Under the pieces are notes generated by a model. That model saw only the letters and a list, made by a program, of their open reading frames with translations. It ran no database searches and was not told the DNA's origin. From Candidatus Omnitrophota bacterium (lineage in GTDB: Bacteria > Omnitrophota > Gorgyraeia > Gygaellales > Profunditerraquicolaceae): 64,000 bases of DNA. The DNA is taken from positions 201,046-265,045 of the forward strand of contig JBAZKC010000002.1 in NCBI GenBank assembly GCA_041651035.1, written 5' to 3'. Both the position numbers and the translations under genes were made by a program. Position 1 is the stretch's first letter; every line of letters begins with the position of its first letter. Of the stretch, positions 44,577-62,872 are shown one piece after another.

Positions 44577-45236
44577 ATGTATAATTATAATTTACACGCG
44601 CATAGCTTGCTAAGTGACGGGCAGCTGCTTCCTTCCGAGGTAGCTGTGCGTTATCTTAAAAAAGGCTATAAGGTAATCGCGATCACCGATCATGCCGATT
44701 ACAGCAATATAAAGCCTACTTGCCAGGCGGTCATAGAATTCTGCCGCAAATGGCCGAAAGATTCAAAGATCAAGATCCTCCCGGGAATAGAATTAACGCA
44801 TCTGCCTTTAGGGCAATTTAAGCCCCTGGCTGATTACGCCAGAAACCAAGGCATAAAGATAATTATCGGGCATGGCCAGACCACGGCTGAGCCGCTGATA
44901 GAAGGGACTAACATCGCGGCATTAGAAGCGGATATAGATATATTAGCCCATCCGGGTTTGATCACTGGCGCGGAAGTTAAATTAGCCAAGAAAAAAGGAA
45001 TATTTTTAGAGGTCACGTCCCGTAAAGGCCATCGCGACGCTAACTCTCATGTCGTCAGGCGCGCTTTAAAAGCAGGCGCTAAATTGATCTTAAATAATGA
45101 CAGCCACGCTCCCGAAGATATTATAACGCCTGAACAATTAATAAACATAGGGCGGAAAGCGGGATTAAGCGCGGAAGGAATAAACAGGATTTATAAAGAC
45201 GTGAATAATTTCTTACGCGAAAAGGAGGAAAGATGA
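44577..45236 (+). CDS. PHP-domain metal-dependent phosphoesterase
   Basis: NLHAHSLLSDG and ITDHADY motifs. The start is placed at the ATG at 44577; the upstream part of the ORF overlaps the tRNA. Confidence 0.7.
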   Translation: MYNYNLHAHSLLSDGQLLPSEVAVRYLKKGYKVIAITDHADYSNIKPTCQAVIEFCRKWPKDSKIKILPGIELTHLPLGQFKPLADYARNQGIKIIIGHGQTTAEPLIEGTNIAALEADIDILAHPGLITGAEVKLAKKKGIFLEVTSRKGHRDANSHVVRRALKAGAKLILNNDSHAPEDIITPEQLINIGRKAGLSAEGINRIYKDVNNFLREKEER

Positions 45237-45700
45237 AGGCAAAAGTATTGATTCTCGCGCTCTTGGGTTCCTGCGCTCTTGGGTTCTTAGGATGCGCCGA
45301 TCTATCTAACAAAAACGATAACCTGTCAAAAAACTCAAACCTATTAGAGCCATCCGCTGCGCTAAAGTTCAACGATGTGCCTGTTCCCATGGGATTTAAG
45401 TCGTTACCGCAAGGCTCCTATTCTTTTGAAACAAGCGGCGTGCGCGTAGGCGTATTAAAATACCAGGGCAAGGCAAACCCGGACCAGTTGATCAACTTCT
45501 ACAAAGAACAGATGCCTCTATATAACTGGAACCTGCTGAATATCGTAGAGTATGGCGACCGCCTGATGAATTTTGACCGCGAAAATGAAACCTGTATAAT
45601 AAGCTTATTGTCCAAAGGAAGCACCTCTATTATTACGGTCTCTTTAGGCCCAAAACCACAGCAAATTTCCCAGAAAAAGCCTAAACAACCCGTAAAGTAG
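45233..45700 (+). CDS. Hypothetical lipoprotein
   Basis: 155 aa with a signal peptide and Cys lipobox (FLGC); nothing else recognisable. Confidence 0.5.
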   Translation: MKAKVLILALLGSCALGFLGCADLSNKNDNLSKNSNLLEPSAALKFNDVPVPMGFKSLPQGSYSFETSGVRVGVLKYQGKANPDQLINFYKEQMPLYNWNLLNIVEYGDRLMNFDRENETCIISLLSKGSTSIITVSLGPKPQQISQKKPKQPVK

Positions 45701-45955
45701 ATACAGGGCTCCATAAGTTATCTGCTTATTAAAAAACACTTGACAAACAACGAGTTATATGTTAAAAATTAAACAAATTAGGTTATACCACTGGAGATGA
45801 CTTTAATCTCAGGCGAAAGGGAGGTGAAGACCAAAACAGGCCCAAAGTCAGCCAAAATCCAGTGATATACATATATAGAAAATACCTAGGAATAAAATAT
45901 TAAACCCTAGTTGATTATAGTTGTGTTATTGATTTTTTAAAGGAGGATAACCTAA

Positions 45956-47356
45956 ATGAAGAAACATCTAATATTACTCCTGGCTCTTGCGCTTGTGGCC
46001 GGTTCAGCTTTTGCCGCCTACGCGGAAGTCCAGAATGTAAAAGTAAGCGGAGACATCACTGCCTTAGCTTTAGGCCGTGCTTTATCCCTTACATCTCAAA
46101 AGGCTGAAACTACTATGGCCAGCATTATACGTTTAAGAGTTGACGCTGACTTAACCGATAATGTTACCGCCACAGTAAGATTGATCAATGAAAGATATTG
46201 GGGAGAAGATGTCACTAACCAGAATACTACCGGTTATGGCTCTTCAGCAACGTCAGATAATACCAATATCGATCTTGATTTAGCCTATGTAACCTTAAAA
46301 GAATTCCTGTATTCGCCTCTGACTTTAACAGTAGGCCGCCAGGAATTGCATTTCGGAAGTGACATGATTGTTGGCGATGCTTATACCAATAACCACGCTT
46401 CCAAGGCTAGCGTATTCAACACAACCATTGACAAAGATTTAAGCATGCGCAAGTCATTTGATTCTATCCGCGCAACCTTAAATTATGATCCGTTGGTGGT
46501 TGATGTCGTAGCAGCTCAGGTTAGAAAGAATTCACGTACTCTGACATATAATCTCAGCAGCGGCAGCAGCGCCTTAGATATTGATACCCAGGAGACTCTA
46601 ATAGGCGTTAATGCTAATTACGCTGTTAACAAAGATACGAATGTAGAAGGATACTTCTGGCAGAGAAGAATAGGCAAGAATGATAAAAGCGCCTCTGGTG
46701 TTCTGAAAACAGATACTACCAATGTTGTAGGCGCCCGTCTCGTTGCTAAGCCTATTGAAAATCTAACTTACGAGTTAGAGTCAGCGTTTCAGTTCGGCAA
46801 GTCAACCAGCTCATCAGCAAATCTTGAGCGCAAAGCCTGGGCATTAGAAACCATGGCTACCTACGATCTAAAGAATGTAAAAAATATGGCAAAATATGTG
46901 CCTACAGTAAGCGCGCTTTATGCTTATTTTAGCGGTGACAGGGGAAGCAAGAGCGGAACTGAAACCTACAAAGGTTGGGACCCGATGTATGAAAACCAGA
47001 CCTTTGGCAGTATCGCTAATGCTATCTTTAACCAGACCAATATGCATATCATAGGCGGCATCATCCAGGCAAAAGCAACTGATGATGTTACTTTAAAAGC
47101 TGAATATTACGCATACTGGTGGGATAAGAGACACAGCGATGGTGATACCGTTTCCAACGTGGCAACCGGACTACCAGCAACTATGACCGGGAAAAAGTTC
47201 TTAGGGCAGGAAATTGATCTTTCTGCTACCTATGACTACACCGAAGATGTGCAGTTCGGCATCCTCGCCGGTTGGTTAGCTCCTGGTAAATCTTTCGCGA
47301 AAGTAAATCGTAACACAGCCGCGGAAGTAATCGGTTCAATGAAGGTTACATTCTAA
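45956..47356 (+). CDS. Putative outer-membrane beta-barrel protein (porin-like)
   Basis: 466 aa. Signal peptide ...AFAAYA, alternating amphipathic beta-strand pattern, and a C-terminal KVTF (terminal aromatic residue). It is preceded by a promoter-like TTGACA..TAAAAAT at about 45738 and a leader of about 190 nt. Confidence 0.6.
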   Translation: MKKHLILLLALALVAGSAFAAYAEVQNVKVSGDITALALGRALSLTSQKAETTMASIIRLRVDADLTDNVTATVRLINERYWGEDVTNQNTTGYGSSATSDNTNIDLDLAYVTLKEFLYSPLTLTVGRQELHFGSDMIVGDAYTNNHASKASVFNTTIDKDLSMRKSFDSIRATLNYDPLVVDVVAAQVRKNSRTLTYNLSSGSSALDIDTQETLIGVNANYAVNKDTNVEGYFWQRRIGKNDKSASGVLKTDTTNVVGARLVAKPIENLTYELESAFQFGKSTSSSANLERKAWALETMATYDLKNVKNMAKYVPTVSALYAYFSGDRGSKSGTETYKGWDPMYENQTFGSIANAIFNQTNMHIIGGIIQAKATDDVTLKAEYYAYWWDKRHSDGDTVSNVATGLPATMTGKKFLGQEIDLSATYDYTEDVQFGILAGWLAPGKSFAKVNRNTAAEVIGSMKVTF

Positions 47357-47375: not shown

Positions 47376-47411
47376 CAAACCCCCGGGGGAGTAATCCCCT
47401 GGGGGTTTTTT
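47376..47411 (+). terminator. Rho-independent terminator downstream of the outer-membrane protein gene
   Basis: AAACCCCCGGGGG agtaat CCCCTGGGGGTTTTTT. Confidence 0.8.
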
Positions 47412-47445
47412 AATACCGACATCACACCGGAGAACTTATTAAGAT

Positions 47446-49017
47446 ATGCTTTATCTGGCCTTCATCTTTCATATGCACCAGCCGTATTACAAGGACCTCT
47501 TAACCCAAGAGGCGGATCTACCCTGGGTACGCCTGCACGGGGCCAAGGATTACCTGGATATGGTCTTGATCCTGAAAAAATACCCCCTGATCCGCCAGAA
47601 CTTCAACCTCGTGCCGTCATTAATAGAACAGATAGAAGACTATAATAATCTGGCGGTAAAAGATAAATTCCTGACATTATCCCAGAAACCCGCCGAAGAT
47701 TTAACTTCTCAGGATAAAATATTCCTAACAGAGAATTTCTTTTCCATTAACACGGAAAAAGTAATTTCTATCCACCCGCGCTATTACGAATTATACCTTA
47801 AGAAACAGCGGAGGGCGGGCTTTACCGCGCAGGACTATTTAGACCTGCAAGTATGGTTTAATCTGGCCTGGATAGATCCCTGTTTCAGGCAGGATATACC
47901 TGAACTAAAGGACTTGATCGCCAAGGGAAGGTTCTTTAGCGAAGAAGATAAGCGGACCGTGCTAAACAAACACCTTAAGATCATAAAAGATATCATCCCT
48001 ACCTATAAGGAATTTTCAGACAGCCAACAAATAGAAGTCTCTATCACCCCTTACTATCATCCTATTTTACCTTTGCTCTACAACACTAATATTGCCAAAC
48101 AAGCCAACCCAAAGACTGTCCTGCCCCGGATAGGATTCGCTTATCCAGAAGACGCCCAAACCCAGATAGAAGAAGCCGTAAAATTCTATCAAGCCAGATT
48201 TAATAGCCCTCCTTCAGGCATGTGGCCGTCTGAAGAAGCGGTAAGCGAACATATCTTGCCGTTTATAATTCAGGCGGGATTAAATTGGATAGTTACTGAT
48301 GAGGCTATTCTCTTTAAATCCTTGAATAAGAAAAAAAGAGACGCGAGGCTTTTATACAGGCCGTATCTTCTAAAGAGAAAAAAGGGGGCATTAAATATAG
48401 TCTTTCGTGACAGGAATCTTTCGGATCTGATCGGGTTTACCTATCACTCCTGGAAGGCCAAAGACGCCGTAGATGATATGATGAAACACTTAGAGAATAT
48501 CGCGCAGGCATTCAAAGGACAGGATACCCTTGTTACCATTGCCATGGATGGCGAGAATGCCTGGGAATATTACCCTAATGACGGCCATGATTTTCTAGAA
48601 CTGTTTTACCAGAGGTTATCCGATTCCAAGATTATAACGACTACGACAATAAGAGATTACTTAAAGATGTTTTCTCCGAAGTTTGAAATCAAACGCCTTG
48701 CCGCCGGTTCCTGGATATACGGAGAATTCGGTAAGTGGATAGGCAATCCCTATAAGGTATACGCCTGGGAATGCCTGGCAGAAGCAAGAAAGAAGCTGGA
48801 AGAAGTAATCAAATCAGGAGGAGAGGGGATTAACTTAAGCCTGGCCTGGAAACAGATGTATATCGCAGAAGGCAGCGATTGGTTCTGGTGGTATGGAGAT
48901 GATCAACCTGATTTCGACAGGCTTTTCCGCATGCATTTATCTAACTTCTATACTATAATAGGTAAGGAGATACCCGGCTACCTGAAGAAACCCTTAGTTC
49001 CGCGCCTTATCCCATAG
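47446..49017 (+). CDS. Glycoside hydrolase family 57 protein (GH57 alpha-glucan branching / 4-alpha-glucanotransferase type)
   Basis: 523 aa. N-terminal IFHMHQPYY signature of GH57. Its size matches the roughly 520-aa GH57 branching enzymes. Confidence 0.85.
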   Translation: MLYLAFIFHMHQPYYKDLLTQEADLPWVRLHGAKDYLDMVLILKKYPLIRQNFNLVPSLIEQIEDYNNLAVKDKFLTLSQKPAEDLTSQDKIFLTENFFSINTEKVISIHPRYYELYLKKQRRAGFTAQDYLDLQVWFNLAWIDPCFRQDIPELKDLIAKGRFFSEEDKRTVLNKHLKIIKDIIPTYKEFSDSQQIEVSITPYYHPILPLLYNTNIAKQANPKTVLPRIGFAYPEDAQTQIEEAVKFYQARFNSPPSGMWPSEEAVSEHILPFIIQAGLNWIVTDEAILFKSLNKKKRDARLLYRPYLLKRKKGALNIVFRDRNLSDLIGFTYHSWKAKDAVDDMMKHLENIAQAFKGQDTLVTIAMDGENAWEYYPNDGHDFLELFYQRLSDSKIITTTTIRDYLKMFSPKFEIKRLAAGSWIYGEFGKWIGNPYKVYAWECLAEARKKLEEVIKSGGEGINLSLAWKQMYIAEGSDWFWWYGDDQPDFDRLFRMHLSNFYTIIGKEIPGYLKKPLVPRLIP

Positions 49018-49088
49018 CTCTTATCAGAACTAACAGACGAAAGGAAACATATTGACAGACAATGGGTTTTGTGTTATAAAAATTAAAA

Positions 49089-49649
49089 ATGGACAAGAAA
49101 GATATCTACGAACACCTGGCCAAGATCTATCTGGATGCTTCTTCCAAGAAGAAAAAAGCGCGCAATTACCCGAAGTTTTCTAAAAACCTTATTTTAGTAA
49201 GCGCTGTTTTCGTATTCGCGTCCAGCCTTATATTATTTAACAATTCCCAGCGGAAAAAAGCCTTAAATTCAGAGCTGGCACTTGTGCTTTTGCCTGAGGC
49301 GGCGAAACTTAACTTCCACTTTGACCCCGCCAGGAAAGAAACCTATTCCTTCAATTTAAACAAGTTAAGCTTAAGCCGGTTTAAGTCCTTGGCATTTTCC
49401 GTAAAAAAGACCGACCATAGGAATGCCGTTTCCTTAAGGGTTGAGTTTACCACTCCTTTTAAGGAAAGGTCTGAAGTCTATTTTAAAGATATACCGTATA
49501 AGTGGCATGATTTTAGAATAAACCTTTCTGAGTTTAAAGGCATAAGCGACTGGTCGGAAATATCCAGCCTTTCTTTTTCCGTTGAAGAATGGAACGCGCA
49601 GAGTAAAAAAGGCATAGTCTATATAGATAATGTAAGATTACTGAAATAG
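49089..49649 (+). CDS. Membrane-anchored protein with a putative carbohydrate-binding-module-like beta-sandwich domain
   Basis: 186 aa. Basic N-terminus, a single TM helix (LILVSAVFVFASSLILF), and a C-terminus GIVYIDNVRLLK that resembles the terminal strand of CBM4/9/11-type modules. Confidence 0.45.
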   Translation: MDKKDIYEHLAKIYLDASSKKKKARNYPKFSKNLILVSAVFVFASSLILFNNSQRKKALNSELALVLLPEAAKLNFHFDPARKETYSFNLNKLSLSRFKSLAFSVKKTDHRNAVSLRVEFTTPFKERSEVYFKDIPYKWHDFRINLSEFKGISDWSEISSLSFSVEEWNAQSKKGIVYIDNVRLLK

Positions 49650-49688
49650 AAGAAGGCATGGCTTGCATGCCCGAAAGGAGACAAGAAT

Positions 49689-50771
49689 ATGCGGATTATT
49701 TCTACGGCTAACCAGAAGGGCGGATGCGCCAAGACGACCACCGCGGTAAATTTAGCCGCGTCTTTAGCTGCTAATTCCAAGAAGGTCCTGCTGATAGACT
49801 TAGACCCGCAGGCGCATGCTACCTTGGGGTTAAATATTAAGGCCGACTTAAGCATCTATAACGTCCTTTCAAAAATAACCCACAAGAAAGCTAAATTAGA
49901 AAATATCGTGCAGAACTTAGGGGTTAATTTCGATATCGCCCCGTCCAGCATAGTATTAAGCACGCTGGAACAGGAGTTAGCCGGAGAAATAGGAAGAGAA
50001 TCCCGCCTTTGGGAAACATTGAATAATTTTAAAACCAGCTATGATTATATATTAATAGACTGCCCTCCCAATTTAGGGATACTGACTATAAACGCCATCC
50101 GCGCCTCGCATGAGATAATCGTGCCGGTAGAAGCAAGCAGATTTTCTCTTGAGGGCCTTGACCAACTTATCAGCATAATAAACCTGGTAAAAGAAAGATT
50201 GAGCCATAACGTAAGTTTTAAGGTACTCGTAACTAACTTTGACTCCCGGCTCAGGCACTCATTTAAAATGCTTGAGCGCATAAAGTCTAATTTCAAATCT
50301 CAATTATTCAATACTATAGTGCATGTAAACGTAAAATTAAAGGAGGCCCAGAACGAAGGGGAGCATATCTTTAATTACGATAAATACTGCCGCGGCGCCA
50401 AAGACTATTTCAGCTTAGCCAAAGAGCTCATCATGCAAGAAACTACGCCTCTTTCCTCCGGAGCATTAGAGAAAAAGATGCAGGATATCTTAAAAGAAAA
50501 ACTGCCCAGGCTGATGGAAATAACTTTTTCATTATCCGCGCCGGAGGCAAAAGAAGTTTATCTGGCGGGAGATTTTAATTCCTGGAAGTTAGATACCACG
50601 AGCAGAATGGAGCATAATAACGGCGCCTGGAAAAAAAAGGTCAGCCTTTCCAGCGGTAAGTACCGTTACCGCTTTGTAATTGACGGGGAGTGGAAAGAAG
50701 ACGCGAATAACCCCGTTAAGGAAATAAACCCCTACGGCTCGGTGGATTCCTTAATAGAAGTTAAAGGATAG
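49689..50771 (+). CDS. ParA/MinD-family P-loop ATPase fused to a C-terminal AMPK-beta-type glycogen-binding domain (CBM48)
   Basis: 360 aa. Deviant Walker A NQKGGCAKTTTAVNLA and Walker B ILIDCPPNLG. From about aa 275: KEVYLAGDFNSWKL...YRYRFVIDGEWKEDANNP...GSVDSLIEVK, which closely matches the AMPK-beta glycogen-binding domain (KEVYLSGSFNNW...YKFFVDGQWTHDPSEP...GTVNNIIQVK). Confidence 0.85.
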   Translation: MRIISTANQKGGCAKTTTAVNLAASLAANSKKVLLIDLDPQAHATLGLNIKADLSIYNVLSKITHKKAKLENIVQNLGVNFDIAPSSIVLSTLEQELAGEIGRESRLWETLNNFKTSYDYILIDCPPNLGILTINAIRASHEIIVPVEASRFSLEGLDQLISIINLVKERLSHNVSFKVLVTNFDSRLRHSFKMLERIKSNFKSQLFNTIVHVNVKLKEAQNEGEHIFNYDKYCRGAKDYFSLAKELIMQETTPLSSGALEKKMQDILKEKLPRLMEITFSLSAPEAKEVYLAGDFNSWKLDTTSRMEHNNGAWKKKVSLSSGKYRYRFVIDGEWKEDANNPVKEINPYGSVDSLIEVKG

Positions 50772-50779
50772 AAGCCCTT

Positions 50780-51106
50780 ATGACTACTCCGCAAGTAAAA
50801 AAAGACGCTCAGGAAGGAAAATTCTTCGCGGTAATTTCTTATATAAGTTTTCTTTGCGTAATCACCCTGCTTTTAAAGAAAGGCAACAAATTCGCTCTTT
50901 ACCACGCTAAGCAAGGCCTTGTGCTTTTTGTATTCGAAGTAGCGGCTTTTATCATCTCCATCGTCCCTCTGCTTGGCTGGCTGCTGGGTACATTCGGCTT
51001 AGCGGTATTCAGTATTTTTTCCTTATGGGGGATCCTTCAGGCATTAATGGGCAAGTATCCCCGCTTCCCCATAATCTCAGATATTGCTGACAACATTACT
51101 ATATAA
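50780..51106 (+). CDS. Small integral membrane protein (DUF4870-like)
   Basis: 108 aa with 2-3 TM helices. YHAKQ...LWGILQA resembles DUF4870. Confidence 0.55.
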   Translation: MTTPQVKKDAQEGKFFAVISYISFLCVITLLLKKGNKFALYHAKQGLVLFVFEVAAFIISIVPLLGWLLGTFGLAVFSIFSLWGILQALMGKYPRFPIISDIADNITI

Positions 51107-51145
51107 AAAATTGCCTCTAAAAAATATTAACCAAGGAGGTGCCTG

Positions 51146-51544
51146 ATGCCTGCCAAGAAAAAGGCGGTAAAAAGAAAAATTGTAAAAAAGAAACCAGCCA
51201 AGAAGAAAAGCACCGTTAAGAAACCGGTACGGGGCAAGGTTAAGAAACCGGTAGTTAAGAAACGGGCAACCAAGAAACCAGCGGCTGCTAAGAAGGCGAA
51301 AGAAAATGTTATCGGAAAGGTCACGCATTATTTTCCTCATGTCAGGGCAGCTGTAATAAAATTAAAAGGGCCGCTATCAACAGGAGACACGGTCAGGATC
51401 AAGGGCCACACTACGGAGTTTAAACAACGCATAATCTCTCTGCAGATAGACCGCGTTCCCATAAACTCCGCGAAAAAAGGCCAAGAGATCGGGTTATTAG
51501 TTGATTCCAGAGTAAGAAACGGAGATATGGTTTATAGTGTCTAG
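51146..51544 (+). CDS. Histone-H1-like lysine-rich protein with a C-terminal EF-Tu-domain-2-like beta-barrel
   Basis: 132 aa. The first about 50 residues are a KKP/KKA-rich tail (PAKKKAVKRKIVKKKPAKKKSTVKKPV...). The C-terminal 80 aa (GKVTHYFPHVRAAVIKLKGPLSTGDTVRIKG...GDMVY) resemble the GTP_EFTU_D2 barrel. Strong RBS AAGGAGG. Confidence 0.6.
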   Translation: MPAKKKAVKRKIVKKKPAKKKSTVKKPVRGKVKKPVVKKRATKKPAAAKKAKENVIGKVTHYFPHVRAAVIKLKGPLSTGDTVRIKGHTTEFKQRIISLQIDRVPINSAKKGQEIGLLVDSRVRNGDMVYSV

Positions 51545-51560
51545 CACGGAAGGAGGAGGG

Positions 51561-51743
51561 ATGAGGCTTTCAGAAATTGAGAAAAAGGCAAGAAGCATGG
51601 GTGTTAAAGACACCTGGAAATACTCTAAAAGGGAGTTGATCAAGACCATCCAGCGTAAAGAGGGTAATTTTGACTGTTTTGGGACAGCCCGCGGAAATTG
51701 CGGCCAAATGGCCTGCTGCTGGAGGCCTGATTGCGTAAGGTAA
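51561..51743 (+). CDS. Small protein with a Rho_N/SAP-like helix-hairpin N-terminus and a 5-Cys C-terminal tail
   Basis: 60 aa starting at the ATG at 51561 with a strong RBS (GGAAGGAGGAGGG). LSEIEKKARSMGVKD..SKRELIKTIQ resembles the Rho termination factor N-terminal (SAP-like) motif. It is followed by CFGTARGNCGQMACCWRPDC. Confidence 0.45.
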   Translation: MRLSEIEKKARSMGVKDTWKYSKRELIKTIQRKEGNFDCFGTARGNCGQMACCWRPDCVR

Positions 51744-51765
51744 CTAAGGAAAGGATAAGCCAGCA

Positions 51766-51951
51766 ATGAAATACAGGTGCCAGATTTGCGACAGAGATAT
51801 CGATGATTTCGCCAGCATTGCGCACATAAAGGCGGAAGAGTACATAATTAACTTAATAAGGCGGGACCATCCTGAATGGAAAAAAGAGGAAAAAACCTGC
51901 CATAAGTGCGTTGACTATTACCGTAAGCTGGTAAAAGAAACTGAAATTTAA
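51766..51951 (+). CDS. Small zinc-ribbon protein (CxxC...CxxC)
   Basis: 61 aa: MKYRCQICDRD...TCHKCVDYY. RBS AAGGAAAGGA. Confidence 0.4.
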   Translation: MKYRCQICDRDIDDFASIAHIKAEEYIINLIRRDHPEWKKEEKTCHKCVDYYRKLVKETEI

Positions 51952-51966
51952 ACAGGGAGGTTTCCG

Positions 51967-52251
51967 ATGATGGGATTTTCAGGTATGTTTGAAGCGCTAT
52001 TATTGATCGCCTTAGGTTTTGGTTACATAGTCCTGTATCTTGCCAAAAGAGAAGATAAAAGGCTGCAATTCCTGGGTTATTTCCTGGGTGCCGTGATCAT
52101 AACACTATCATTAACCTATCTTGTCATCAATGTCTTGACGCAAGCGTTCTTCTTAGCTCCAAAAACGCGCTATTACAACAGGAGCATAATACAACCGTCT
52201 AAGTCTATGCCGCGCCCCATGCCGCAGCAGGCACCCGCGCAAAAACCTTAA
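51967..52251 (+). CDS. Small membrane protein (2 TM) with a Pro/Gln-rich C-terminus
   Basis: 94 aa. Two hydrophobic helices and a PRPMPQQAPAQKP tail. RBS GGGAGG. Confidence 0.4.
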   Translation: MMGFSGMFEALLLIALGFGYIVLYLAKREDKRLQFLGYFLGAVIITLSLTYLVINVLTQAFFLAPKTRYYNRSIIQPSKSMPRPMPQQAPAQKP

Positions 52252-52258
52252 GATTTTC

Positions 52259-53212
52259 TTGATGCGTTATCTCATAACAGGGGGAGCGGGTTTCATCGGC
52301 TCCCACCTGGCAGAATATTTACTTAAACAAGGCCATTTTGTCCGCGTCCTGGATAATTTCTCCAGCGGTAAACGCGAAAATTTAAGCTTCACCAAAGAAC
52401 TGCCCCCCACGAAGTTTGAGCTTATTGACGGGGATATCCGCGATAAATCTGCCTGCGAAAAATCCTGCCTGGGCATTGATTATGTGCTTCATCAGGCAGC
52501 CCTGCGCTCAGTCCCAAAATCAATGAAAGACCCTCAAAGTTATAACGATGTTAATATAAATGGCGTACTTTTTATGCTCCAGGCAGCTTTAAAGGCAGGC
52601 ATAAAGCGCTTTGTATTTGCCTCATCAAGCTCCGTATATGGAGATACGGATAAGATCCCCGAGAAAGAAAAGGATTACCCCAGGTTAATTTCTCCTTACG
52701 CGCTTACCAAGCTGGCAGGAGAATATTATTGCCGCGTATTCAGCCAATCTTTCGGGTTAGAAACCGTGTCTTTGCGCTATTTTAATGTTTTCGGCTGCCG
52801 CCAGGCCTTAGATGACGAATACGCGGTAGTTATACCAAAATTCATCTATAGCATACTTCACGATCAACAGCCTCCGGTATTCGGCACAGGCAAACAATCC
52901 CGCGATTTTACCTATATAGATAATGTTGTCCAAGCCAATGTTCTGGCTGCTACCACAGCGGGCATAAGGGAGGCAGTATTTAATGTAGCCAATGGCAAAG
53001 ACCACACGATCCTGGAGCTGGTTGACCTCTTAAACAGAATACTCGAGAAAGACTCAAAACCCGTATTCCTGCCGCTGCGGCCAGGAGATGTCTTCCGCAC
53101 CTGTGCTGATATTTCCAGTATCAGAAAAGTTTTAGGCTATAAACCAAAGGTAGGCTTCGAAGAAGGGTTGCGTCGCACAGCTGCCTGGTTTAGCAAGTCG
53201 CTAAAACAATAA
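52259..53212 (+). CDS. NAD-dependent epimerase/dehydratase (extended SDR; UDP-sugar 4-epimerase or decarboxylase type)
   Basis: 317 aa. TGGAGFIGSHL Rossmann motif and the YxxxK catalytic motif (SPYALTK). Confidence 0.85.
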   Translation: MMRYLITGGAGFIGSHLAEYLLKQGHFVRVLDNFSSGKRENLSFTKELPPTKFELIDGDIRDKSACEKSCLGIDYVLHQAALRSVPKSMKDPQSYNDVNINGVLFMLQAALKAGIKRFVFASSSSVYGDTDKIPEKEKDYPRLISPYALTKLAGEYYCRVFSQSFGLETVSLRYFNVFGCRQALDDEYAVVIPKFIYSILHDQQPPVFGTGKQSRDFTYIDNVVQANVLAATTAGIREAVFNVANGKDHTILELVDLLNRILEKDSKPVFLPLRPGDVFRTCADISSIRKVLGYKPKVGFEEGLRRTAAWFSKSLKQ

Positions 53213-53307
53213 TTAAGAGTACATACTCATTATAACCGGGGCGTTAAGAATAGGTAAAAGTAAGTAAATCCTGATAAGCACAAACGCCGCTTTATAAGAG
53301 ACTATAA

Positions 53308-53658
53308 ATGCCTAATATTGTAGGAAGGCCTAAAAAATACCGAATAGTGCGGCAAGACCCGCGGATAAGCCAATTTAGCCCAAGAGGGAAGCCTGGCAGG
53401 CCGGATGAAGTTGAGCTTAGTATGGATCAATTCGAGGCTATAAGGCTGGCTGATTACATGGGCCTGGGACAGAAAGAAGCGGCAAAATCAATGCGCATAT
53501 CCCAACAAACCTTTAGCCGCGTGCTTAAAAAGGCGCGCAAATCCCTGGCAAACGGCTTGGTTAATGGAGCCGCTATCAAGATCCAGGGAGGTTCTTATAT
53601 AATCAGTTCCCGTGAGAATTCCCCGCCAGATAGCTTAAAAAAACCACCAATTCCATAG
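53308..53658 (+). CDS. DUF134 (UPF0251) family putative DNA-binding protein
   Basis: 116 aa. Sigma-region-4-like HTH LSMDQFEAIRLADYMGLGQKEAAKSMRISQQTFSRVLKKARKSL. Confidence 0.65.
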   Translation: MPNIVGRPKKYRIVRQDPRISQFSPRGKPGRPDEVELSMDQFEAIRLADYMGLGQKEAAKSMRISQQTFSRVLKKARKSLANGLVNGAAIKIQGGSYIISSRENSPPDSLKKPPIP

Positions 53659-53861
53659 GCATTTACAGGGCCAACCGCACTTTTTGCCCTATAAATACCC
53701 TTGTGCTCAACTTCCTATAATATATCTTATGTTAACTTGAGCATATTGAATATATTGCCCTAAGGCATTGTGTTATAATGAGTTAAGTTATGTATGTATT
53801 TTCCTGTGTATAAGCCAAACTTGACTTACTTCGACTTACTTACTTTCTTTAAGCTTTACAT

Positions 53862-54686
53862 TTAGAAACAAATGGTGAGCTTATTTGACAGGCCGGATTG
53901 GCTGGCAAGTTCCCTGGCTCTTTGGCGCAGTTGCCGGCTGTATTCGGCATATTTGGCGGGATTGGTAGTTTTATAGAGCAATAATCTCCAATTAGTATAC
54001 TCTCCCCTGCTTAACCCTTTTTTAATGGCATCCAGGACACCCCAGCGGGGATTTAATCTATCTAAATAGATCCGCTCTAAATTCAGGCCTTTCAGGGAAC
54101 TAAAAATGGCTTCTAAATTAGCCGGAGTATCGGTAAATTCAGGTATCAAGGGCCCTAAAAACACCCAGGTCTTAATGCCTTTTTCCTTGGCCTTTTTTAG
54201 GGTATTTAAACGATCTTGAGGCTCTGAAGCATAGGGTTCTAAGGCCTTTTGCAGGTTTAAATCCAGGGTAGTAATGGTCATGCCTAACCTGGGGGTTTTA
54301 TAGGCCTCCAGAAGGTCTAAATCGCGCAAGATCAGGCTGCTTTTAGTGAGTATGTCTACCTCAAAACCTGCCTCCAGAAGCAGTTTAAGGCAGGCCCGTG
54401 AGAGCTTATATTTTGCCTCTATTGGCTGCCAGGCATCGCAGATAGAACTCATAAATACCTTTTTGGGTGGCTTGATCTTGCGGAGCTGTTTAGCCAGAGC
54501 CTCCGGAGCGTTTATCTTAACATCCACAAAATCGCCCCAGTCCTCAGGCCTATCTTTGAACTTCTTCATATACCGGGCATAGCAATACAGGCATCTGTGG
54601 CTGCAGCCTACATAGCAATTCAGGGTAAAGTCGCTCAGGCTGGATTTGTTCAGAAGGGTTTTACACTGGATTTCGCGGATTTTCAT
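53862..54686 (-). CDS. Radical SAM domain protein (SPL / DNA-repair-photolyase-like family)
   Basis: 274 aa. CxxxCxxC cluster in GCSHRCLYCYARY near the N-terminus. Confidence 0.7.
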   Translation of the reverse strand: MKIREIQCKTLLNKSSLSDFTLNCYVGCSHRCLYCYARYMKKFKDRPEDWGDFVDVKINAPEALAKQLRKIKPPKKVFMSSICDAWQPIEAKYKLSRACLKLLLEAGFEVDILTKSSLILRDLDLLEAYKTPRLGMTITTLDLNLQKALEPYASEPQDRLNTLKKAKEKGIKTWVFLGPLIPEFTDTPANLEAIFSSLKGLNLERIYLDRLNPRWGVLDAIKKGLSRGEYTNWRLLLYKTTNPAKYAEYSRQLRQRARELASQSGLSNKLTICF

Positions 54687-61177: not shown

Positions 61178-62872
61178 TTATAAATAAGCATTTAGCACAT
61201 ACTCCTGAACCATTCTCTGGGTATTAAAAAATGAGGCGTTCAGGGCAATTGCATGCCGCATTATCTCAATCCACTTATTTTTATCTTTATAAAACATAGG
61301 AATTATTATCCCCTCTAATTTTTGATATAAATCGCGGGCGTCTTGGGCGCTATCGGTATTCTTCTTGTTCGCCGGCCCAATCGCCCAACCAGTTACATTT
61401 TCAATACATCCTTCTATCCACCAGCCATCCAGGACGCTTAGATTCGGTACGCCGTTAAGGCAGGCCTTCATCCCGCTTGTGCCAGAGGCCTCTCGCGGAG
61501 GAAGGGGATTATTCAGCCAAAGGTCAACGCCGCTAGTAATTAATTTCCCTTGCGTCATATCGTAATTCTCTAAGTATGCAATTTTGATTTTTGGGCTTAA
61601 TTCTTTAATCCTTGAAAATATATTTTTTATCAGCTCTTTTCCTCCGCCATCCTTAGGATGCGCCTTTCCCGCATAAACGATTTGTATCCTGCCTGCCTTA
61701 TCATTAATTTCAGCTAAACGCTTTATATCAGTTAATAAAAGGTCTGCTCTTTTGTAAGGCGTAACGCGCCGGGCAAACCCTATAGTAAAGATATCGTAGT
61801 CCATCCCGATGCCCGTTTGGCTATTTACATAATCAATAAGTTCTTTTTTTGCCTCCCTGTGCGCCTCCAATATTTCCTCTTTGGGGATACTTAAGGCATA
61901 ACGTAAGGAAAAATAATCTGATTGCCAACCGGGGATATATTTATCGTAAAGCCTTTTGAACGCAGTAGCCGCCCAGGTTAACAAATGAATACCGTTGGTG
62001 ATAGAATCTATGATGTAACCAGGAAACATCTCCCGCGTCACCTCGCCGTGTTTCTTGGCTACCCCATTGACATATTTACTCAAATTCAAAGCAATCAGGG
62101 TCATATTCATTTCATTATCCCGGATAAATATATCAGACATTTCAAAAGGCAAGTTGCTGCGTAGAGCTCTTTTTACAAAATCAAGAGGAAAGCGGTCATG
62201 CCCGGCAGCTACAGGAGTATGCGTGGTGAAGATGCATTGATTTCTTACGGATTCAAGGTCATATTTTTTATAAATATCTTCTTCGCCGTCTTTTTTTGTC
62301 CTCCCTAATAATTCCAGAGCCAAGAGGCTGGCATGGCCTTCGTTCATATGGTATTTTTCGATATTTTGATAGCCAATAGCTCCAATCGCCCTCAATCCCC
62401 CTATTCCAAGGATTATCTCCTGACAAAGGCGATACCACTGATCGCCTCCGTAAAGAAAGCTGGTCAGGCTGCGGTCGTATTCAGTGTTTTCAGTAAGGCC
62501 AGTGTCCAGAAAATAAACCGGCACAATCGCGCCGGTAACGCCCTTTACAATATACTCCCAAACCTGAATTTTGACTTCCCTTGCTTCAATATTTACGCTT
62601 ACTTTTATCGGCAAAAGAGTTAAAAATTTCTCTTTTAGCCATTCCACAGGAATTTCTGCCTGGCTTCCTTCTCCATCCAGCTTTTGCGCAAAATAACCTT
62701 TTTCATTAAGCATGGTTACGGCGATAAGTGGTACGCCTAAATCCGCGCAGGATTTTATAGTATCTCCTGCTAGAACCCCTAATCCGCCGCTATAGGTAGG
62801 CATTTTAGAATCAAGGCCTACTTCCATTGTAAAATAGGCAATTTTTCTTTTCCCTATCTCTTGTTTATCCAT
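61178..62872 (-). CDS. glgP: Alpha-glucan phosphorylase (GT35, short maltodextrin/glycogen phosphorylase type)
   Basis: 564 aa. GGLGVLAGD motif and the pyridoxal-phosphate Lys region (NGVAKKHGEVTREMFP). Confidence 0.85.
   Translation of the reverse strand: MDKQEIGKRKIAYFTMEVGLDSKMPTYSGGLGVLAGDTIKSCADLGVPLIAVTMLNEKGYFAQKLDGEGSQAEIPVEWLKEKFLTLLPIKVSVNIEAREVKIQVWEYIVKGVTGAIVPVYFLDTGLTENTEYDRSLTSFLYGGDQWYRLCQEIILGIGGLRAIGAIGYQNIEKYHMNEGHASLLALELLGRTKKDGEEDIYKKYDLESVRNQCIFTTHTPVAAGHDRFPLDFVKRALRSNLPFEMSDIFIRDNEMNMTLIALNLSKYVNGVAKKHGEVTREMFPGYIIDSITNGIHLLTWAATAFKRLYDKYIPGWQSDYFSLRYALSIPKEEILEAHREAKKELIDYVNSQTGIGMDYDIFTIGFARRVTPYKRADLLLTDIKRLAEINDKAGRIQIVYAGKAHPKDGGGKELIKNIFSRIKELSPKIKIAYLENYDMTQGKLITSGVDLWLNNPLPPREASGTSGMKACLNGVPNLSVLDGWWIEGCIENVTGWAIGPANKKNTDSAQDARDLYQKLEGIIIPMFYKDKNKWIEIMRHAIALNASFFNTQRMVQEYVLNAYL

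Follow-up and report, generated by a model that had tools for sequence, protein, structure and literature searches.

What might a bacterium do with a ParA-type ATPase that carries its own predicted glycogen-binding domain, and what is the small membrane protein encoded directly in front of it? This question is raised by a locus in a 64,000-nt stretch of a Candidatus Omnitrophota contig (the window, by which we mean the whole of that stretch). Here, the gene for a 186-residue protein, p186, precedes a gene that fuses a ParA domain to a family 48 carbohydrate-binding module (CBM48). ParA/MinD ATPases are general cargo-positioning devices of bacteria, serving chromosomes, plasmids, carboxysomes, chemoreceptor arrays, the divisome and flagella. 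We tentatively propose a positioning system of the ParA/MinD type in which p186 serves as membrane-anchored partner to a ParA whose CBM48 binds glycogen directly. We consider this reading plausible though short of probable. It is put forward because the predicted topology of p186 leaves a conserved peptide on the cytoplasmic side, and because the p186 gene was never found apart from the ATPase gene.

The two genes and their parts lie as follows.

49089–49649, + strand: p186 gene, 186 amino acids
49089–49142, + strand: p186 residues 1–18 (MDKKDIYEHLAKIYLDAS), a near-invariant amphipathic helix and then a Lys run; candidate for a peptide that binds or activates ParA
49179–49253, + strand: p186 transmembrane helix, about residues 31–55, predicted N-in/C-out from AlphaFold2 (AF2) and the positive-inside rule
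49269–49646, + strand: predicted extracytoplasmic beta-sandwich of p186, CBM11/CBM30/CIA30-like, in which W139, W155, W168 and acidic residues are invariant
49689–50771, + strand: ParA–CBM48 gene, 360 amino acids
49689–50438, + strand: ParA/Soj-type deviant Walker A ATPase domain (AAA_31, 2.6e-54)
50517–50768, + strand: CBM48/AMPK-beta-type glycogen-binding domain (AMPK1_CBM, 3.9e-14; CBM_48, 4.6e-07)

A ParA ATPase fused to a predicted glycogen-binding domain

The N-terminal part of the fusion matches AAA_31 at 184 bits, against a cut-off of 27. Across 73 orthologs the motifs NQKGGCAKTTT, DLDPQ and IDCPPN, which place the domain among the deviant Walker A ATPases, are at least 95% conserved; besides the deviant Walker A motif itself (KGGCAKT), Walker A'/B motifs are retained. 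The same holds for HVNVKLKEAQ, except that the first K of KLKEAQ is conserved to at least 70% and is R or Q in some orthologs. A phmmer search of the PDB returned Myxococcus xanthus ParA first (8ray, 2e-51), followed by Soj (1wcv, 5.6e-38) and 6iub; identity to the ParA/Soj structures is 37–42%. Foldseek, run with a model of this domain of moderate confidence, also placed ParA and Soj on top. NVKLKEAQ aligns with NVRLSE[AC] of ParA/Soj, with a K in place of the DNA-binding Arg of Soj (R189). Because the C-terminus of the protein is the CBM48, the C-terminal helix of MinD-type proteins is absent. Membership in the BY-kinase and BcsQ families was considered and rejected, as the scores fall far under the family cut-offs (66.7 vs 157.85 and 38.8 vs 108).

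The C-terminal domain lies above both curated thresholds (PF16561, 53.0 bits vs 26.8; PF02922, 30.5 vs 22.4). Its 85 residues match the CBM of AMPK beta1 (1z0n, 2.7e-10), with FNSW, YRYRF and DGEW standing opposite FNNW, HQYKF and DGQW. The residues that contact carbohydrate in AMPK beta1 are W100, K126 and W133; both contact Trp are at least 95% conserved in the 73 orthologs, and the contact K is replaced by R. The AF2 model of the domain (predicted local distance difference test, pLDDT, 85–91) superposes on the AMPK beta CBM at 1.2–1.9 Å over 83–89 residues. By sequence and by model, the predicted CBM48 of the fusion is a domain of the glycogen-binding type. In the full-length AF2 model only the CBM48 is reliable, the ATPase part being of low confidence (mean pLDDT 65.8) because the alignment is shallow. 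Initial annotation of the gene as a ParA–CBM48 fusion is upheld by Pfam.

The fusion is 73–84% identical across its best 120 matches. Our literature search found no published ParA–CBM48 fusion, no ParA system for glycogen and nothing relevant on ParA in Omnitrophota, and a 2024 review of the ParA/MinD family makes no mention of glycogen (PMC11407121).

An inseparable pair

Gene order was compared in two sets of loci: close loci from GTDB species (80, found with a p186 profile) and loci of remote family members. The counts for ParA–CBM48 cover loci with room for that gene. The remote members were looked up because general synteny alone could give the pattern seen in the close loci. In them, p186 is only 23–32% identical and the ParA protein 51–59%; those that are named also belong to Omnitrophota.

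ParA–CBM48 lies directly downstream of a p186 homolog in 78/78 close and 8/8 remote loci, that is, in all 86. The gap between the two genes has a median of about 18 nt and measures 13–40 nt in most loci. The other flanks vary. Locus L084 has an Opp ABC transporter and an M23 peptidase upstream and counts a nitroreductase among its other neighbours, L082 and L085 differ again, and several remote loci carry nitroreductase, OsmC and MGDG-synthase genes downstream. Since the pair persists where the other flanks differ, we regard p186 and ParA–CBM48 as an evolutionarily locked unit. Conservation of the neighbourhood, on which the initial annotation had staked its proposal, thus holds for this pair at every locus with room in both sets. 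As an observation in its own right, a nitroreductase gene, often with OsmC, stands right after ParA–CBM48 or the DUF4870-like gene described below in L082, L084 and L088–L091.

A conserved peptide at the cytoplasmic end of p186

More than 950 homologs of p186 were found, about 187 residues long, and every named one is from Omnitrophota. The AF2 model, built from 40 homologs (pLDDT 86), comprises a helix at residues 3–18, a disordered Lys-rich stretch, a transmembrane helix at 30–55 and a nine-strand sandwich at 64–185, where pLDDT is mostly about 90 or higher. The VYIDNVRLLK strand (E174–185) comes last. Lys and Arg average 7.1 in the N-terminal flank of the transmembrane helix and 2.3 after it, and the N-terminal flank is the more basic in 80/80 homologs. 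By the positive-inside rule this gives an N-in/C-out topology in all 80, and we therefore predict that the sandwich is periplasmic. The layout first drawn from the sequence, with a basic cytoplasmic N-terminus, one transmembrane helix and an extracytoplasmic beta domain ending in VYIDNVRLLK, was borne out in each part.

With this topology, the predicted cytoplasmic portion of p186 consists of the N-terminal peptide and the Lys run only. An alignment of 40 homologs shows most positions of residues 1–18 to be invariant, against 58–73% identity to the sequence in the window over the remainder of the protein. Codons 2–18 vary freely at synonymous sites, and the constraint on this end of the protein is therefore at the protein level rather than on the RNA. 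For the same reason we rejected a nucleotide-level constraint from a leaderless mRNA as the cause of the invariance. A recognisable N-terminal motif is kept even in family members of 23–32% identity (for example, MKKEVSDHLAKAFF and MEKNEVYDYLAKIYL).

Known activators of ParA/MinD ATPases have unrelated architectures and have in common a short, conserved, positively charged N-terminal peptide (PMC7993993; PMC11407121; PMC12462528). Such a peptide is necessary and often sufficient for activation in ParB, SopB, MinE, ParG and PomX, and the same has been suggested for McdB and TlpT (PMC7993993; PMC11407121; PMC12462528). It had been suggested at the outset that the membrane protein could be the adaptor or anchor partner of ParA–CBM48. 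A near-invariant N-terminal peptide under protein-level selection speaks for this suggestion; a physical contact between the two proteins we infer.

A predicted outer domain related to carbohydrate-binding modules

Among known folds, those of CBM11, CBM8 and CBM30 are closest to the predicted structure of the p186 sandwich. In the alignment, W139, W155, W168, E166 and D180 are invariant within the sandwich, and these Trp and acidic residues hint at carbohydrate binding, although they are suggestive only. Compared with Pfam and NCBIfam, p186 reached no family at E ≤ 0.01, and this includes the absence of a direct match to CBM11 or CBM30 (PF03425/PF21582). We therefore file p186 as related in fold to CBM11/CBM30 and not as a member.

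An exhaustive profile search with p186 retrieved 484 cluster representatives, and among the best 150 listed some 100 have the same architecture of about 190 residues. The p186-type sandwich also recurs, often in several copies, in proteins of 400–2950 residues, and in most of these the matching stretches are assigned by Pfam to CBM30, CBM_11 or CIA30. Companion domains in the large proteins include beta-helix, PKD, dockerin, GH-like and PF10091 domains. Five of the large proteins (P0317, P0328, P0344, P0349 and P0376; 1400–2950 residues) carry 3–5 copies of the sandwich. A Pfam scan of P0317 and P0328 found beta-helix/NosD domains in both and, in P0317, additional PKD and GH-like domains. The large repeat-sandwich proteins are probably surface proteins that bind or degrade glycans.

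The jelly-roll fold and the transitive profile homology support the description of p186 as CBM-like. Prediction of its structure, proposed as a check when the protein was first described, gave a CBM-type sandwich; the relatives are beta-glucan modules, and no Pfam threshold was reached.

Promoter, boundaries and further members of the module

The remaining features of the locus are these.

47377–47411, + strand: intrinsic terminator, a hairpin at 47377–47408 with a 14-bp stem, then U6
47446–49017, + strand: GH57 gene, 523 amino acids
49052–49080, + strand: sigma-70 promoter with extended −10 (TTGACA 49052–57, TG 49072–73, TATAAA 49075–80; 17-nt spacer)
50780–51106, + strand: DUF4870-like gene, 108 amino acids
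51146–51544, + strand: p132 gene, 132 amino acids

Four open reading frames (ORFs) on the + strand, from GH57 to the DUF4870-like gene, had been reported with gaps of 71, 39 and 8 nt, and all of these coordinates were reproduced. The strong terminator placed ahead of them (at 47376–47411) was also confirmed: it folds with a free energy of −28.7 kcal/mol (z −4.44; none of 200 shuffles was equal). This terminator ends the upstream porin gene and sets the 5' boundary of the module. A scan of 47411–54000 found no convincing terminator on the + strand, only poor candidates inside coding sequence, in agreement with the initial annotation, which had seen no obvious terminator between the four genes. 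A hairpin in the p186–ParA gap (49655–49671) was dropped as a feature, being no better than shuffled sequence (z −0.63).

The gap between GH57 and p186 holds a near-consensus promoter, 8 nt 5' of the p186 ATG. The pattern TTGACA-N14-TGNTATAA matches only here in the window, where chance would give 0. A 28-nt pattern, TTGACA-N9-TTTTRTGYTATAA, occurs exactly once in 63/81 close loci and always immediately 5' of p186. The distance from the end of the −10 element to the p186 ATG is 6–14 nt in 39/62 loci, and no Shine-Dalgarno sequence was found 5' of this ATG. With the −10 element so near the start codon, p186 is probably translated from an mRNA that lacks a leader or carries a very short one. This promoter motif does not occur in the remote CG1_02_44_16 lineage, where GH57 and p186 are 15–22 nt apart. 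Since a conserved strong promoter precedes p186, the four genes probably do not form one simple transcript in the lineage of the window. The co-transcription supposed earlier is likely for p186, ParA and the downstream genes, whereas GH57 would join them only by read-through in this lineage.

A second, weak promoter-like element, read by eye, follows the terminator and precedes the GH57 start codon at 47446 (47416–47443, + strand; CCGACA, 16 nt, TATTAA). It ends 2 nt short of this codon, and a well-placed Shine-Dalgarno sequence is lacking. For these two reasons GH57 too may be translated from a leaderless mRNA.

The GH57 protein matches PF03065 at 6.6e-67 (226 bits), and its nearest solved structures are 8zyi and 9jlq, at about 1e-91. 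The stretches gmWPSEeavs and amDGENaweyy align with 9jlq, so both catalytic motifs, WPSE and DGEN, are retained; these we take to be GH57 conserved regions 3 (catalytic Glu) and 4 (Asp). Both structures are of a GH57 amylopullulanase (PMC12106739). From this similarity, the predicted product is an alpha-glucan hydrolase of amylopullulanase type. It has no signal peptide and opens directly with the HQP region, which argues for a cytoplasmic location. The earlier description of the locus as a glucan-handling neighbourhood therefore needs narrowing: it is supported for GH57 and CBM48 only, since the p186 sandwich resembles modules for beta-glucan rather than for starch or glycogen and is predicted to be periplasmic. 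GH57 lies upstream of p186 in 63/70 close and 6/7 remote loci. Glycogen synthesis is commonly encoded in metagenome-assembled genomes of Omnitrophota (PMC8542988). About 10 kb from the module, at 61178–62872 (− strand), the window encodes a glycogen catabolism function, a 564-residue alpha-glucan phosphorylase-like protein (PF00343, 7.3e-30), beside a pyruvate kinase gene.

The 108-residue protein has three hydrophobic segments and resembles the small membrane proteins of the DUF4870/MamF_MmsF type. It scores 18.4 bits against DUF4870 (PF09685), under the gathering cut-off of 25, and precomputed matches to PF09685 are "faint" in L001 and firm in the ortholog of L084. It is probably a distant member of DUF4870. 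Thus, of the family labels assigned initially, those for GH57 and ParA–CBM48 are firm in Pfam and the DUF4870 label is weak. The gene is optional, being present in 31/63 close loci and 1/7 remote loci.

A regular fifth member, p132, falls outside the extent first given to the module (47446–51106), within which the four genes do stand. It follows ParA–CBM48 in 63/63 close and 6/7 remote loci. The 73 homologs examined all have an N-terminal tail of 40–75 residues, about 50% Lys/Arg and with almost no acidic residues, and a core IGxVTHYFPxVxAAV, in which THYFP is invariant, within a small beta-barrel. Profile searches of the PDB and Pfam with its C-terminal domain gave weak matches only, to EF-Tu domain 2 and Peptidase_U32_C, and offered no clue to its function. 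Candidate roles remain: p132 is possibly a histone-like protein, a nucleoid-binding component or a ParA-activating factor. Two small Cys-rich proteins, p68 and p61, are encoded next (51537–51951, + strand) and are syntenic downstream in most close loci. The first combines a Rho_N/SAP-like N-terminus with a CxxxxC...CC...C tail, and the second shows a CxxC...CxxC zinc-ribbon pattern.

On the 5' side of the module, at 45233–47356 (+ strand), lie a 155-residue lipoprotein-like ORF and a 466-residue AlgE-type porin (Alginate_exp, 3.8e-25). Even the remote CG1_02_44_16 lineage (L088–L091) keeps PHP, porin and GH57 in synteny, and the porin may be a functional part of the module. Synteny across 80 species extends to a longer block, which runs through APRT, PHP, lipoprotein, porin, GH57, p186, ParA, p132, the small proteins and DUF134. 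The surroundings within the window are core-chromosome genes, including those for PPDK, a sigma-70 factor, APRT, aminoacyl-tRNA synthetases and DnaE. Elsewhere in the window, at 11113–16614 (+ strand), a single 1833-residue ORF with a signal-peptide-like N-terminus contains phosphoglycerate kinase (residues 413–625, 4.4e-43) and the C-terminal domain of GAPDH (979–1134, 3.1e-25). No family match was found for its last approximately 700 residues. The ORF resembles a giant glycolytic-enzyme fusion, which would be very unusual.

Taken as a whole, the module GH57–p186–ParA–CBM48–(DUF4870-like)–p132 is apparently specific to Omnitrophota, and its core is the p186/ParA–CBM48 pair.

How the pair might work, and what else it could be

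In the mechanism we propose, which goes beyond what domain identity, predicted topology, adjacency and selection show, ParA–CBM48 would be a Soj-like ATPase that dimerises on ATP, and the fused CBM48 would hold cytoplasmic glycogen directly. Because the CBM48 is part of the ATPase, no separate cargo adaptor would be needed. The N-terminal peptide of p186, a bitopic protein of the inner membrane, would contact the ATPase in the manner of the peptides of ParB, MinE, PomX and McdB. Through this contact the ATPase, loaded with glycogen, would be brought to the envelope, made to hydrolyse ATP there, or both, so that p186 would act as activator, anchor or both. On the far side of the membrane, an envelope or external glycan held by the CBM11/30-like sandwich would keep p186 in place or gather it into clusters. 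Alpha-glucan hydrolysis of the same polymer would fall to GH57, and the polybasic p132 is another candidate for the activator, or may connect the system with the nucleoid.

Several points weigh against this proposal. The p186 sandwich, being predicted outside the cytoplasm, cannot reach the glycogen of the CBM48, and its CBM11/CBM30 relatives bind beta-glucans. p132 is an equally good candidate for the activator of ParA–CBM48. Within the p186 peptide, K12 is not invariant, which leaves the acting basic residue ambiguous, and the predicted DNA binding of ParA–CBM48 derives from one aligned basic residue. The ATPase domain is close enough to chromosomal Soj (37–42% identity) that it is possibly the chromosome-partition ATPase of the cell. 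Finally, as PHP and porin lie upstream in both the close loci and the CG1_02_44_16 lineage, part of the conservation is plain synteny.

The strongest of the alternatives follows from the resemblance to Soj. ParA–CBM48 could be the chromosomal Soj itself, with a glycogen-sensing domain that ties segregation or the control of replication to carbon storage; in that case p186 and p132 would be modulators or unrelated. AMPK CBMs of this type are regulatory glycogen sensors, the fusion is strongly conserved, its best structural match is a ParA (8ray), and no second ParA was seen within the 64-kb window. Against this, parB is adjacent in none of about 90 loci, the window has no parS-like site with up to 3 mismatches, and the universal partner gene is p186 rather than parB. 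We consider this alternative unlikely, while giving it more weight than any of those that follow.

Slightly less likely again is a role in which p186 senses or receives periplasmic or external glycan, with clustering of its peptide controlling the ATPase; together with the porin, the genes would form a locus for glucan uptake and storage. Such a role would suit a CBM-like ectodomain with invariant Trp and acidic residues, whose module is repeated in large proteins with glycosidase-like, beta-helix, PKD or dockerin domains, and it would give meaning to the synteny of porin and PHP in two deep lineages. But the module includes neither an inner-membrane transporter nor a signalling domain, an 18-residue helix would be a minimal output, and no porin lies upstream in L084. 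Moreover, the fold family points to beta-glucans, yet GH57 and CBM48 act on alpha-glucans.

It is improbable that the pair is a module for assembly of an envelope polysaccharide, with ParA–CBM48 as an organiser resembling BcsQ or a BY-kinase and p186 guiding the polymer as BcsB does. The fusion has a full-length match to CBP_BcsQ (4.2e-09) and one to TIGR03371 (2.1e-18), and glycosyltransferase, MGDG-synthase and Polysacc_synt genes lie downstream in a remote lineage. These glycosyltransferase genes are not conserved beside the pair in the close lineage, there is no adjacent synthase in the window, the BcsQ and BY-kinase scores are those given above, and the protein ends in a CBM48 rather than a tyrosine cluster. 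Least probable of all is that gene order was kept without shared function in a slowly rearranging core-chromosome block, as the synteny from APRT to DUF134 might suggest: the pair survives the change of all its other flanks, with short gaps in most loci and a dedicated conserved promoter 5' of p186, and p186 evolves fast and yet is never parted from ParA.

Returning to p186 as the partner of a glycogen-binding ParA, a stronger form of the proposal is that bacteria have here a dedicated system, the first of its kind, by which glycogen particles are positioned or tethered, with the CBM gripping the cargo and the tip of p186, possibly with a second polybasic factor, switching the activity. We regard this stronger form as possible but rather doubtful. 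If it is true, partitioning of the storage granules of these ultra-small cells, or their retention at the membrane, would depend on ATP. More generally, a ParA with a carbohydrate-binding module of its own, tied to a membrane protein that bears a peptide of the ParB/MinE kind, would add a polysaccharide to the cargos of the ParA/MinD family. It would also provide an example of an ATPase that binds its cargo directly, a link between cytoplasm and envelope, and a role for three families of "hypothetical" proteins found almost throughout a large part of the uncultured Omnitrophota.

Comparison with known systems

The chromosomal ParA(Soj)/ParB(Spo0J)/parS system has the ATPase closest to the one described here, with the deviant Walker A motif in common and a basic residue at the position of the Soj Arg. 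ParA–CBM48, like Soj, may be activated by the N-terminal peptide of a partner. Unlike that system, the locus has no parB or parS nearby, the ATPase carries an extra CBM48, and the neighbour is a membrane protein without the ParB fold.

McdA/McdB of carboxysomes and orphan ParAs such as PpfA/TlpT resemble the proposed system in that a ParA-type ATPase positions a cytoplasmic cargo other than DNA. The partner proteins of McdA/McdB-type systems carry a basic N-terminal extension (PMC7993993). Here, in contrast to McdA/McdB, the cargo module is fused to the ATPase and the putative partner is bitopic, with a predicted periplasmic CBM-like domain; the ATPase is also much nearer to Soj than to McdA (2e-51 vs 2e-12).

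In the PomX/PomY/PomZ system of Myxococcus, a ParA/MinD ATPase has two non-homologous activators, and our locus likewise offers two candidates, p186 and p132. The N-terminal peptide of the PomX type, about 22 residues long, is rich in charged residues, conserved and sufficient for activation (PMC7993993). As in PomXYZ, the ATPase is highly conserved while the partners diverge fast. The differences are that the cargo is another one, the components are non-homologous and p186 is anchored in the membrane.

For the glycogen-binding side, the parallels are eukaryotic. The CBM of AMPK beta binds glycogen, and membrane-anchored factors of the Stbd1/Atg45 type tether glycogen particles. These proteins have a glycogen module of CBM48 type in common with the fusion and are without a ParA ATPase. 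Stbd1 combines CBM and membrane anchor in one polypeptide on the cytoplasmic side, unlike p186 and ParA–CBM48. The p186 sandwich itself departs from the usual CBM11, CBM30 and CIA30 modules in being stand-alone and anchored by a transmembrane helix rather than appended to a glycosidase, and in its lack of a direct Pfam match.

An architectural parallel to p186 is FtsN, a bitopic divisome protein with a short, conserved, basic cytoplasmic N-terminal peptide that binds FtsA, one transmembrane helix and a periplasmic glycan-binding SPOR domain. The two proteins share this architecture and are unrelated in sequence and fold; the partner of FtsN is of the actin type and that proposed for p186 is of the ParA type, so the likeness is one of analogy only. 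By that analogy, the sandwich may fix or cluster p186 on envelope glycan, as SPOR does for FtsN.

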